In this document: positions 4,411 to 6,329 of the stretch, piece by piece
Layout of the letters: the number at the start of each line of letters is the position of its first letter
How positions within the stretch are numbered: position 1 is the first letter of the stretch
Assembly: GCF_056712565.1 (NCBI RefSeq)
Contig: NZ_CM160072.1
DNA: 64,000 bases
Direction: 5' to 3' (one strand)
Program-made: the position numbers and the translations under genes
Notes under the pieces: model-generated
What the model was told of the DNA's origin: nothing
Database searches by the model: none
What the model saw: only the letters and a program-made list of their open reading frames with translations

Positions 4411-5055
4411 TCAACGAACCGTCCATGAAGGGCTGAAATTCTCTTCCTGAAACAGCTCTGTCAGCCCGCTAATCTGTTTCAGCCTCAGCACTTCATCCTG
4501 GTCCATGCCCAACTCTGTGCCAATACGCTCATCTGTCCAGCCCAGACGCGAAAGGTCCCTGACAATGTCAGACATTGACGTTATCTGGTGTTTTCCCCTG
4601 GCACGGTTATGCCGTATGGTTGCGGCAATACGTGATGCCTGTCCCTTTCTTTCCGGATTAATACAGGTCACTGGCAGCCAGCCCTTCAGACGTTTTCTCG
4701 TATCCGCTTTCCTGCCCAGCAACTGACGATGAAAACCATCCACGACCAGATAATGCTCCTTCTCTTCCGAAACCACCACAGGCTGCGTGAATCCATCCTG
4801 CTCCAGTGAATGTTTAAGCAGTTTTTTTTCACTGGAAGACATGACATTGGGATTGTAATCGTTGGCCACCACCTCATCCGCTTTCACCCACAACACACAG
4901 TCCACAGGCTCCTGTGCAAAAGGGCTGACCTCATGCAACACCCTGCGCAGATGATTAAGGGCTCGTATGGTCTCTTCTTCAGATCGTTCCTGACTGAAGT
5001 ACTGTCGAATCATGTTGCTCAATACTTCCACCTCAGGTGTCACAGAATCCCCCAT
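4411..5055 (-). CDS. ibrB: ParB-like nuclease domain protein (IbrB-like); start codon uncertain (alternative start near 5013)
   Basis: 214-aa ORF with ParB/sulfiredoxin-like features; immediately downstream of and overlapping the PAPS-reductase-like gene; pair recalled as IbrA/IbrB. Confidence 0.55.
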   Translation of the reverse strand: MGDSVTPEVEVLSNMIRQYFSQERSEEETIRALNHLRRVLHEVSPFAQEPVDCVLWVKADEVVANDYNPNVMSSSEKKLLKHSLEQDGFTQPVVVSEEKEHYLVVDGFHRQLLGRKADTRKRLKGWLPVTCINPERKGQASRIAATIRHNRARGKHQITSMSDIVRDLSRLGWTDERIGTELGMDQDEVLRLKQISGLTELFQEENFSPSWTVR

Positions 5056-6329
5056 TCCTTCCTCCTTTCTTTCATACGCTGCAGATAACGTTCATAGTGC
5101 CGGGGTTTGTTCGGACTGAAGGAGAGGGTCCGGCACCAGAAATCATTCTTTATGAGTGTCTTACAGATACGTCGCCAAGACGGGATATCCCGGCTCCCCA
5201 GGTCATTCTCCTGTTCATCCGGGATGTCATCCGGGAAGCCCCGCGTCTGATACCAGCGCAGGTAGACAGCAATTTTATTACGGTAATGTTCTGCCGTTCT
5301 TTCCGGCATCACATCCAGCAGGAACATCGCATAGCTACGCCAGGTATGATGAGGCGGCTTCGTGATACGCTTACGCAGGGCAAAATAGGCACCGCTCTCA
5401 TTGGCATAAAGCGCCCCGCTGGCAGCACCCGACACCCGCTCACACATCCTGGCCCAAGTTTCCGGCTCCAGAACATGGTAAAGCCACAGTCCCTTACGCT
5501 GTTCCGGGCCAAAAGGCTCACAGACCCGCATGTTGCGTAACGGCACGCCGGCACGGTACATCAGGTCATACAGGGGATTGTAGATAGCTCGGGTTCTGGC
5601 GTTATATATCCATATATCACGGGCTTTCCAGTCATACAACGGATACAAGGTGTAATAAAACCCTTCAGGTGACGCTGTGGTCCAGGGTTTATCATCTGCA
5701 TATCTCAGTTTGCGCTGAGACACCAGTCCCATAAAGCGATTGAGCGATTCATCAGCACGAACACCAGTCAGTATTGCCACTCCACACCGGTTACCGGCAA
5801 ACCAGGAAGAAAATGCCGGAACAAATTCTTCAAACGTCATGGCATACCGATAAAATGGGAAATACGACATATCTGTAATAGCGTCATCTGGTGGCTGACG
5901 AACCCACTCCACACCTGGTTCCCAGCATATCCATTCCGGCTGAAACTGAGAGACACCGTTTACCGTAGTCAGGGGGAGTGCCACCCAGTAAAAAGTCTCC
6001 GTCACATCCCGATACATCTCCCTCATCTTCAGAATGTGTGCAATTGTGCACTGGTACTGAGCTTCCCAGTCAATGAATAATACAGAGAAACGACGTTTCT
6101 TCCTGCGAGCCACATCGGCCGTAAGATGGAGCAGCACAGTAGAGTCTTTTCCTCCAGAAAAAGACAAACAAACAGATGAAAATGTCTCAAACAACCACTC
6201 AATACGGTGAATGGCCGCATGTAATACATTAACATCTGTTCTTATCTTCTGTATGGTTCCCATACATATCCTAGTATAAACTATCTTGGCAGTAATATTC
6301 TGAACTACAAACTTAAACCTTCTCATCAA
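5040..6329 (-). CDS. ibrA: phosphoadenosine-phosphosulfate (PAPS) reductase-family protein (IbrA-like); alternative start at 6263
   Basis: 429-aa ORF with PP-loop motif SGGKDS typical of the PAPS reductase / ATP pyrophosphatase family. Confidence 0.6.
   Translation of the reverse strand: MMRRFKFVVQNITAKIVYTRICMGTIQKIRTDVNVLHAAIHRIEWLFETFSSVCLSFSGGKDSTVLLHLTADVARRKKRRFSVLFIDWEAQYQCTIAHILKMREMYRDVTETFYWVALPLTTVNGVSQFQPEWICWEPGVEWVRQPPDDAITDMSYFPFYRYAMTFEEFVPAFSSWFAGNRCGVAILTGVRADESLNRFMGLVSQRKLRYADDKPWTTASPEGFYYTLYPLYDWKARDIWIYNARTRAIYNPLYDLMYRAGVPLRNMRVCEPFGPEQRKGLWLYHVLEPETWARMCERVSGAASGALYANESGAYFALRKRITKPPHHTWRSYAMFLLDVMPERTAEHYRNKIAVYLRWYQTRGFPDDIPDEQENDLGSRDIPSWRRICKTLIKNDFWCRTLSFSPNKPRHYERYLQRMKERRKEWGIL

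Follow-up and report, generated by a model that had tools for sequence, protein, structure and literature searches.

An IbrA/IbrB cassette in an Escherichia coli island pairs a PP-loop ATP pyrophosphatase with a ParB/Srx-type helix-turn-helix protein and lies outside the Dnd and Ssp systems

The locus holds an intact IbrA/IbrB gene pair

We analyzed a 64,000-nucleotide (nt) stretch of contig NZ_CM160072.1 (RefSeq assembly GCF_056712565.1), hereafter the window, whose coordinates are used unless stated otherwise. It belongs to a chromosome of the type of extraintestinal pathogenic Escherichia coli (ExPEC). The subject is a pair of overlapping minus-strand genes, ibrA and ibrB, located in an island next to cobU and flanked by the gene for a TonB-dependent receptor on one side and by a divergent PIG-L operon on the other. 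Two open reading frames (ORFs) are present, one at 4411-5055 (214 amino acids, aa) and one at 5040-6329, which is the maximal ORF and has a TTG start. The RefSeq annotation and the homologue N-termini in the family alignment agree on the ATG at 6263 as the start of ibrA, which gives a coding sequence of 407 aa at 5040-6263. IbrA is identical to WP_001362826.1, annotated in E. coli NU14 as phosphoadenosine phosphosulfate (PAPS) reductase, and IbrB (4411-5055) is identical to WP_000502870.1, annotated in the same strain as an IbrB-like domain-containing protein. Strong purifying selection acts on both genes, with a ratio of nonsynonymous to synonymous substitution rates (dN/dS) of 0.05-0.12 against three E. 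coli alleles.

The genes share 16 nt: the ibrB ATG (5055-5053) lies 13 nt ahead of the ibrA TGA (5042-5040), and a strong AAAGGAGG ribosome-binding site for ibrB is found at 5061-5068, inside the 3' end of ibrA. Because of this overlap and the Shine-Dalgarno site ahead of the ibrB ATG, we regard the two genes as translationally coupled through the region 5040-5068 (minus strand). Overlap or abutment is retained in most of the 158 other loci described below. On the other side of ibrA, an AT-rich spacer of 990 nt (6264-7253, 31% GC) extends to the divergent operon and presumably holds the predicted ibrAB promoter; promoter-like sites are not commoner there than in shuffled sequence, and the spacer contains no terminator-like site. 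Inverted repeats upstream of ibrA are short and unremarkable. The upstream regions of four paralogous islands fail to align, and no conserved operator or parS-like site was found upstream of ibrA.

A preliminary description of the stretch had interpreted it as an overlapping IbrA/IbrB pair at 4411-6329, made up of a ParB-like nuclease and a PAPS-reductase-family protein with an SGGKDS PP-loop. The overlap, the PP-loop, and the naming all proved correct: the two proteins are 92% identical (IbrA 91.6%) to proteins annotated as IbrA/IbrB in Escherichia phage PhiR5_2, and a UniRef relative of IbrA with 81% identity is named co-activator of prophage gene expression IbrA. Both ORFs occupy the interval given, with the 5' end of ibrA now drawn back to the ATG at 6263, and the ParB/Srx (sulfiredoxin) fold holds, while "nuclease" is merely an old domain name and finds no support. 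The window locus is an intact, translationally coupled copy of an already catalogued cassette, and the family is known, annotated, and has been named since 2002. It has the same architecture as the catalogued IbrA/IbrB, namely overlapping ibrA and then ibrB, with PAPS_reduct plus DUF3440 in one protein and ParB plus helix-turn-helix (HTH) in the other, but lies in the cobU-side island rather than in the ECOR-9 island and lacks flanking antirepressor genes.

IbrA is a PP-loop ATP pyrophosphatase with a DUF3440 domain

Three Pfam models matched IbrA: PAPS_reduct (PF01507, split into two segments at 7e-7 and 2e-6), PP-loop (PF01171), and DUF3440 (PF11922, 9e-25). The PAPS-reductase-like catalytic domain covers approximately residues 28-259 (5487-6182, minus strand), with a GxRxDESxxR loop and PxYDW...YNPLYD motifs, and is followed by the helical C-terminal DUF3440 domain (residues 261-407; 5043-5483, minus strand), which has the motif IPSW(R/K)R...KND..C..(S/G)F. 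A family-specific insertion of ~50 residues (approximately residues 95-145) that includes the invariant W114 and W120 splits the Pfam domain. The PP-loop SGGKDS, an ATP pyrophosphatase signature (residues 36-41; 6141-6158, minus strand), is invariant in 66 family members. In the alignment of these 66 sequences, the invariant positions are FSGGKDS, D65, E67, W114, W120, R169, E172, S173, R176, D211, W212, D216, Y232, R246, P267, and Y286, which amount to the complete ATP-pyrophosphatase loop together with the arginine loop and the block "PxYDW ... YNPLYD" typical of PAPS reductases.

An AlphaFold2 model built with the same alignment reached a mean predicted local distance difference test (pLDDT) score of 85.4, and its fold groups with FAD synthase, CysD, and CysH. 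The DUF3440 domain had no structural match among the PDB hits listed, and no solved structures of close IbrA or IbrB relatives were found. No NCBIfam model reached its cut-off; the top scores, 30-36 bits, were those of archaeal PAPS-reductase-like proteins, CysD, and CysH. We place IbrA among the PP-loop ATP pyrophosphatases, in the PAPS-reductase/CysD/FAD-synthase branch, with a family-specific helical DUF3440 domain at its C terminus. It differs from CysD, FAD synthase (FMN adenylyltransferase), and CysH in having the 50-residue insertion and DUF3440, and in lacking a CysN partner, a MoCF-binding domain, and a catalytic C-terminal cysteine.

The IbrA family has no conserved cysteine set. C377, which lies in the DUF3440 motif, is kept in 94% of the family and is the sole conserved cysteine; all other cysteine columns vary by lineage, including that of C248 (in RVCEPFG, at the position of the first cysteine of the SIGCxPCT motif of adenosine phosphosulfate (APS) reductase), which is kept in 36%. 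By analogy with CysD, FAD synthase, and DndC, IbrA would bind ATP, release pyrophosphate, and adenylate a substrate, and it probably has no iron-sulfur (Fe-S) or persulfide chemistry of its own.

IbrB combines a ParB/Srx-type domain with an HTH region

Pfam recognized IbrB only by a weak ParB_N match (0.004). PHROGs profiles matched the IbrA/IbrB pair at 1.6e-86 (phrog_2159, IbrB) and 2e-83, and these matches, the RefSeq name, and the predicted fold together settle the ParB assignment of IbrB. Its AlphaFold2 model (pLDDT 92.7) had Noc, ParB, and KorB as top Foldseek matches (E ~1e-7, 150-170 aligned columns) over both the N-domain and the HTH; for sulfiredoxin and free serine kinase, the match is confined to the N-domain. 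IbrB also scores with SbnI, a ParB/Srx protein that acts as kinase and regulator, and PHROGs links the N-domain to ParB-methyltransferase fusions (phrog_498).

The ParB/Srx-type nucleotide-binding N-domain is predicted at approximately residues 50-135 (4651-4908, minus strand). A profile alignment to Noc placed YNPN on box I (NPxQPR), DGFHR (4726-4740, minus strand) on box II (GERR), and RHNRARG (residues 148-154; 4594-4614, minus strand) on box III of ParB/Noc (ENLQRE), and all three motifs are invariant or nearly so in 76 IbrB-family sequences. The HTH DNA-binding region (approximately residues 158-201; 4453-4584, minus strand) was located by Foldseek and by phrog_6831, a "transcriptional regulator" profile that matches residues 160-193. 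From this motif mapping, it follows that IbrB has kept a nucleotide pocket of the Srx/DndB "DGxHR" flavor together with the HTH. The protein ends soon after the HTH, without the C-terminal dimerization domain of ParB, and the model shows an extra N-terminal helical hairpin.

IbrB is therefore a short protein with a predicted ParB/Srx-type nucleotide-binding domain and an HTH. The N-domain plus HTH fold is common to KorB, VirB, Noc, and ParB, and KorB and VirB are likewise tied to the transcription of mobile-element genes. Unlike these proteins, IbrB has DGFHR and RHNRARG in place of GERR(xR) and ENLQRE, lacks the C-terminal dimerization domain, and is obligately paired with an enzyme. Fusion to IbrA was seen in none of the 150 best IbrB representatives, and 20 long IbrB-family proteins revealed no recurrent extra Pfam domain.

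The pair is conserved across phyla and is sometimes joined by a helicase

One genome per species was scanned, which gave 80 loci, and a viral set added 80 contigs (together 160 loci). The genome loci span Enterobacterales, Verrucomicrobiota, Bacteroidota, Firmicutes, Alphaproteobacteria, Helicobacter, Actinobacteria, and one Asgard metagenome-assembled genome. All but one of them (79/80) contain an IbrB-family ORF, which in 78 lies directly downstream of ibrA on the same strand and mostly overlaps or abuts it. Among the viral contigs, 68 encode IbrB, adjacent to IbrA in 60 and in either order. IbrA and IbrB form an obligate pair, a self-contained module that moves, in many phyla, between phages, plasmids, and genomic islands.

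Clustering of neighboring genes identified only two recurrent partners of ibrA, IbrB and an SNF2-like helicase; the other recurrent clusters reflect enterobacterial synteny or generic phage replication, packaging, and recombination genes. Genes for cysteine desulfurases, DndD/E, SspB/C, SMC-like ATPases, nucleases, or restriction partners are not recurrent in the 160 loci. The helicase (~400-440 aa, phrog_62, motif DxSxxIKN) matches DpdE models and lies directly upstream in 15 of the 80 genome loci and next to ibrA in 20 of the 80 viral loci. Hence there is a three-gene variant, in which the SNF2-like helicase joins the pair in roughly a fifth to a quarter of cases. In Listeria ilorinensis, for example, helicase, ibrA, and ibrB form an islet between tig/clpX and proBA.

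Nine Bacteroidota loci have a conserved ~143-aa protein encoded directly upstream of ibrA, overlapping the ibrA start. It has no PHROG match and may be a lineage-specific third component.

Phages carry the module at accessory positions

INPHARED contains 224 phages with an IbrA relative, among them phages of Flavobacterium (90), Mycobacterium (60), Streptococcus (21), Arthrobacter (12), Bacillus (8), and others. Their contexts are diverse. Flavobacterium phage FCL-2 encodes a helicase, ParB, and PAPS reductase between terminase and portal, and a cluster-B mycobacteriophage has the order ParB, two small genes, PAPS reductase, IbrB, and terminase. In a Bacillus cereus phage, the gene of the IbrA relative overlaps a Dam methyltransferase gene, and a second methyltransferase gene and a ParB gene follow. 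The ibrA/ibrB genes of PhiR5_2 come after two antirepressor genes.

Streptococcus thermophilus phages carry the module in a variable slot between the lysin gene and a cro-like gene. Phage D4276 has a tight same-strand block in this slot (1978-5759 of the phage stretch) that encodes AcrIIA5, gp29, the SNF2 helicase gp30, IbrA (gp31), and IbrB (gp32); gp30 matches the helicase profile built here with an E value of 2e-144. At the equivalent place, the sister phage D1024 carries AcrIIA6. A preprint of July 2026 describes PAPS reductases encoded in Aca-regulated operons and in variable anti-defense regions of phages and labels them predicted DndC/SspD homologues. It also cites an earlier phage PAPS reductase that helps to evade Dnd and that may or may not belong to the DUF3440 clade. 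Phage studies and phage ecology papers routinely count the IbrA-type gene as the sulfur-metabolism gene cysH, a reading that is probably wrong for the DUF3440 clade.

In Mycobacterium phage Obutu (stretch 1-4474), two ParB-family proteins (phrog_723 and, from the IbrB family, phrog_2159) flank the PAPS-reductase-like gene upstream of the terminase; no small terminase subunit is annotated in that stretch.

E. coli islands, plasmids, and a K-12 paralogue

IbrA and IbrB reportedly activate prophage eib genes, a transcriptional phenotype described by Sandt et al. in 2002. Sequences of the ibrAB type at 80% nt identity or more are carried by 2138 of the 5426 complete E. coli genomes (39%), in which the alleles are 84-99% identical and take up to four places per genome; 83 of these places are plasmid-borne. 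At least 99% identity to the window ibrAB is seen in 841 E. coli records, and more than 800 complete E. coli genomes have the identical proteins annotated. The O157:H7 island allele is followed by a gene for a PerC-family regulator and lies near the Cah autotransporter, and the allele on a mouse E. coli plasmid stands beside autotransporter and fimbrial genes. PLSDB lists 874 plasmids with an IbrA relative, of which 323 are from Klebsiella. In the one Klebsiella pneumoniae IncFIB/IncHI1B virulence plasmid examined, fecIRA and iroBCDN flank a pair with 92% identity (7986-9847 of the extracted stretch). Shigella pINV-type plasmids carry remnants.

E. coli K-12 encodes a paralogous pair, YbdN/YbdM, with ~60% amino acid identity and the same gene order and overlap. 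It differs from ibrAB in being a chromosomal operon that is syntenic across Enterobacteriaceae (entA, uspG, rnk, rna, dsbG, ahpF, ybdO, ybdN, ybdM, ybdL, ybdH) and under the control of the LysR protein YbdO/CitR, which represses ybdNM (PMC9068703). Deletion of ybdO raises ybdN by 5.5 log2 and cysDNC, cysJI, and cysAWU by 2-2.8 log2, and flagellar genes also go up (PMC9068703). The rise of the whole cys regulon could point to a disturbance of sulfur or adenine-nucleotide pools by active YbdN, or be an indirect effect. YbdM, called "completely uncharacterized" in 2022, was up 29-fold at the protein level in cells with a resistance plasmid (PMC8764527). Our literature search, to which the 2002 paper and that of Maindola et al. 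2014 were external, found only annotation mentions of IbrAB or YbdNM and no functional study.

The cassette does not belong to Dnd, Ssp, BREX type 4, or the CysH enzymes

DndB-DndC, and likewise SspD and BrxP, share with IbrA/IbrB a ParB/Srx-superfamily protein beside a PP-loop PAPS-reductase-like ATPase, and the preliminary description had seen on this ground a resemblance to the core of phosphorothioation systems, with DndC/SspD and DndB/SspB. We compared the proteins with PADLOC and NCBIfam models, for which the cut-offs are 290 bits for TIGR03183 (DndC) and 154 bits for CysH. Window IbrA did not match TIGR03183 at E ≤ 0.01 and scored 16.8 bits with the PADLOC DndC model, lower than with CysD and CysH. 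IbrA relatives from Firmicutes and Alphaproteobacteria have DndC among their best matches, with 21-33 bits for TIGR03183 and up to 40 bits for PADLOC DndC, but these matches span only ~80 residues in the arginine-loop region and stay ten-fold under the 290-bit cut-off. Such weak local similarity hints at a kinship slightly closer than the bare fold.

DndC hallmarks are a [4Fe-4S] cluster on three cysteines and a cysteine dyad (PMC10853773). Both the triad and the dyad are absent from the IbrA family, in which C377 alone is conserved (94%), and IbrA carries DUF3440, which DndC does not have. DndD (an SMC-like ATPase), DndE, and DndA do not recur beside ibrA in the 160 loci; IscS, which is able to replace DndA (PMC10853773), could act in trans. 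IbrB matches no DndB model and has a ParB/Noc fold, yet its box II, DGFHR, is of the DGxHR type. The corresponding motif of DndB is DGQHR. Neither IbrA, IbrB, nor their relatives match any PADLOC Ssp model (SspD, SspB, SspC, SspE), and no such genes are neighbors; SspB is probably a DUF4007 protein, and its earlier description as ParB-like is doubtful. With BrxP, window IbrA scored 23 bits over the PP-loop region only (residues 37-117). The CysH score was 32.9 bits, and IbrA has no conserved C-terminal catalytic cysteine of the ECGLH kind.

Sub-cut-off scores, absent cysteines, and the want of IbrB model matches led us to reject membership in Dnd, Ssp, and BREX type 4. For Dnd, the grounds are the DndC score, the missing cysteines, and the absence of DndD/E/A partners; for Ssp, they are the lack of model matches and of Ssp neighbors; and for BREX type 4, they are a BrxP match that is local only and the absence of BREX genes from the annotated ~49 kb of the island. 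A CysH-type auxiliary metabolic gene was rejected because IbrA scores low with CysH, has a loop of the ATP type, lacks the catalytic cysteine, and is obligately paired with a ParB-type protein. A specific kinship with DndC/SspD accordingly finds no support; IbrB, without a DndB or SspB model match, resembles Noc/ParB/KorB rather than DndB, though with a box II of the DGxHR type; and the cysteine desulfurase or restriction partners whose co-occurrence had been suggested as a check are not recurrent in the 160 loci. What survives is the idea that the pair acts on DNA like a modification enzyme. The preliminary description had also considered a DNA-modification or defense-related activity, of which the Dnd/Ssp type drops out and a DNA-directed or counter-defense role stays plausible in view of the partnership with an SNF2 helicase, the location behind AcrIIA5, and the neighboring methyltransferase genes.

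Possible function and rival explanations

The reading that we tentatively favor, at somewhat less than even confidence, is that IbrA/IbrB is a DNA-directed, ATP-dependent modification or remodeling cassette of mobile-element origin and that eib activation is a downstream effect. IbrB would bind DNA through its HTH under nucleotide control and position or recruit IbrA, which would use ATP to adenylate, and chemically alter, a DNA-associated target, most likely DNA itself. The chemistry would be independent of a cysteine or Fe-S center, and therefore not a phosphorothioation of the Dnd/Ssp type. Altered DNA might be read differently by restriction enzymes and other defenses, by silencers (H-NS), and by prophage repressors; in phages, the outcome would be counter-defense, and in E. 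coli islands, the switching-on of acquired genes such as prophage eib. One idea would thus cover the phage counter-defense positions, the methyltransferase-like genomic behavior, and the reported eib activation. Phosphorothioate modification of the DNA backbone is reported to alter prophage transcription and repressor binding (PMC10470545), which is a precedent for eib activation by modified DNA. A comparable coupling of a ParB-type module with an enzyme that modifies DNA is seen in the Dpd 7-deazaguanine system (DpdB ParB-like ATPase, DpdA/QueC), which also has SNF2-type helicases, and in phage and plasmid ParB-methyltransferase fusions.

Several points weigh against a DNA-modifying cassette. 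No family member is known to carry out a modification, and the only known phenotype is transcriptional, which fits a regulator equally. The window copy has no helicase, methyltransferase, or defense neighbor and sits between a receptor pseudogene (or a receptor gene with a sequencing error, see below) and a polysaccharide operon, and the K-12 paralogue, a syntenic chromosomal operon that a LysR protein represses, has the look of a housekeeping or regulatory unit. The substrate could also be a nucleotide, a protein, or RNA, and the link to acr genes is one of genomic proximity, seen in one phage group.

The main rival, which we consider possible but unlikely, is a pure transcription regulator pair, in which IbrB is a VirB/KorB-like clamp or anti-silencer against H-NS, IbrA loads IbrB or makes its ligand, and the DNA stays unmodified. 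The top structural matches of IbrB, Noc, ParB, and KorB over N-domain and HTH, agree with such a role, SbnI demonstrates that a ParB/Srx protein can be enzyme and regulator, and the reported phenotype, also reflected in the relatives' names, is eib activation. The enterobacterial pair also lies in AT-rich virulence islands and plasmids, by a PerC-family regulator, autotransporters, and fec/iro, and ybdO deletion derepresses ybdNM and shifts large regulons (PMC9068703). Yet a regulator pair does not account for the obligatory presence of a fully conserved ATP pyrophosphatase in 158 of the 160 loci, for the SNF2 helicase partner, or for the occurrence of the module in phages annotated without integrase or repressor, at accessory anti-defense-type positions; moreover, IbrB lacks the ParB C-terminal dimerization domain and the GERR/ENLQRE residues used for cytidine triphosphate, and no conserved operator lies upstream of ibrA in the four paralogous islands. 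Host-protective defense against phages or plasmids, with the pair sensing or marking foreign DNA or depleting nucleotides, is improbable: the system is not in PADLOC 2.0, has no recurrent nuclease or other effector partner, and has no defense genes as neighbors in the window, and its frequency in phages annotated without integrase or repressor and its place beside anti-CRISPR genes point to counter-defense, even if a mobile two- or three-gene cassette in small chromosomal islets (e.g., tig-proB in Listeria), ParB/Srx and SNF2 domains that are common in defense systems (DpdE, ZorD, DrmD), and the 29-fold rise of YbdM with a resistance plasmid (PMC8764527) would suit it.

Chemical and structural roles of other kinds are less probable still. 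True phosphorothioation or another sulfur insertion, with IbrA as the DndC/SspD equivalent served by housekeeping IscS and IbrB as the DndB equivalent, is quite improbable. The domain pair is the same at the superfamily level, DGFHR is of the DGxHR type to which the DGQHR of DndB belongs, and DndC is among the best family matches of Firmicutes relatives (31-40 bits), but the DndC scores are ten-fold under the cut-off over ~80 residues (16.8 bits for the window protein, with no TIGR03183 match), and neither an Fe-S triad nor a cysteine dyad is conserved in the family. DndD/DndE, SspB/SspC, and a desulfurase never co-occur in the 160 loci, and no SspD or DndB model matches; on the other side, IscS can stand in for DndA (PMC10853773) and the cys regulon goes up when ybdNM is derepressed (PMC9068703). 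An accessory factor for phage DNA packaging or partition, which we rate as very improbable, could draw on the ParB ancestry and on the location of the module, which in cluster-B mycobacteriophages comes directly ahead of terminase and in Flavobacterium phages is flanked by terminase and portal. However, its place differs from phage to phage (behind the lysin gene, within the replication module, or at genome ends), chromosomes and plasmids that have no packaging genes commonly carry it too, and no ParA partner is present. The usual reading of phage "cysH", an auxiliary metabolic gene for a CysH-type PAPS reductase that boosts sulfate assimilation, is extremely improbable. CysH enzymes have a degenerate PAPS-binding loop, whereas IbrA has the canonical ATP-type SGGKDS loop; its CysH score is 32.9 bits against a cut-off of 154, it has no C-terminal ECGLH catalytic cysteine, C248 is not conserved, and an obligate ParB-HTH partner and an SNF2 helicase would make no sense for sulfite production.

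Returning to DNA modification, a bolder version, which as a whole we regard as rather unlikely, holds that IbrA-IbrB, with or without the SNF2 helicase, is an unrecognized, very widespread, cysteine-free, ATP-dependent covalent DNA modification. It would be adenylation-driven and unlike phosphorothioation, methylation, or deazaguanine insertion, and it would serve phages in counter-defense and act as an epigenetic switch for acquired genes in enterobacterial islands and plasmids and for K-12 ybdNM.

New to this well-annotated family are the negative Dnd/Ssp tests, the lack of a conserved cysteine set, the ParB/Noc/KorB-type fold of IbrB, the near-universal pairing across phyla, the three-gene SNF2 helicase variant, and the adjacency to validated anti-CRISPR genes in S. 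thermophilus phages. The family is very widespread, with members in 39% of complete E. coli genomes, on 874 plasmids including those of hypervirulent K. pneumoniae, and in phages of Firmicutes, Bacteroidota, Actinobacteria, and Proteobacteria. If the module does modify DNA or act on chromatin, it would bring new chemistry to the phage-host arms race, explain a virulence-island regulator, and give a function to two E. coli K-12 y-genes.

Surroundings of the cassette in the island

The divergent operon (7254-10508, plus strand) encodes a PIG-L deacetylase, a GT2 glycosyltransferase, a hexapeptide acetyltransferase, and a YaiO outer-membrane barrel, and looks like a surface-polysaccharide module. 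The TonB-dependent receptor gene (1867-4040, plus strand) is frameshifted, with one C absent after 2974 relative to NU14, which splits the 715-aa coding sequence into ORFs at 1867-3024 and 3021-4040; the gene is either a pseudogene or the site of a sequencing error. No eib gene is among the features annotated in ~49 kb of the island. Further along the same island in SCU-116, at 38484-42837 and 44297-47572 of that stretch (window coordinates are ~240 lower), two clusters comprise dynamin-family, RdcB-family, and patatin-like phospholipase genes and a CP4-44-like block (DUF932, antirestriction protein, yeeS, yeeT, cbeA/cbtA).

An IS3-family insertion sequence (IS) element with ORFs of 136 and 301 aa lies at 10598-11871 (minus strand) and is absent from NU14 and SCU-116. 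In other strains, IS copies occur elsewhere in the island: SCU-116 has them in the ibrA-PIG-L spacer, AH19K002 within ibrA itself. The surroundings of the ibrAB cassette thus see lively IS traffic.

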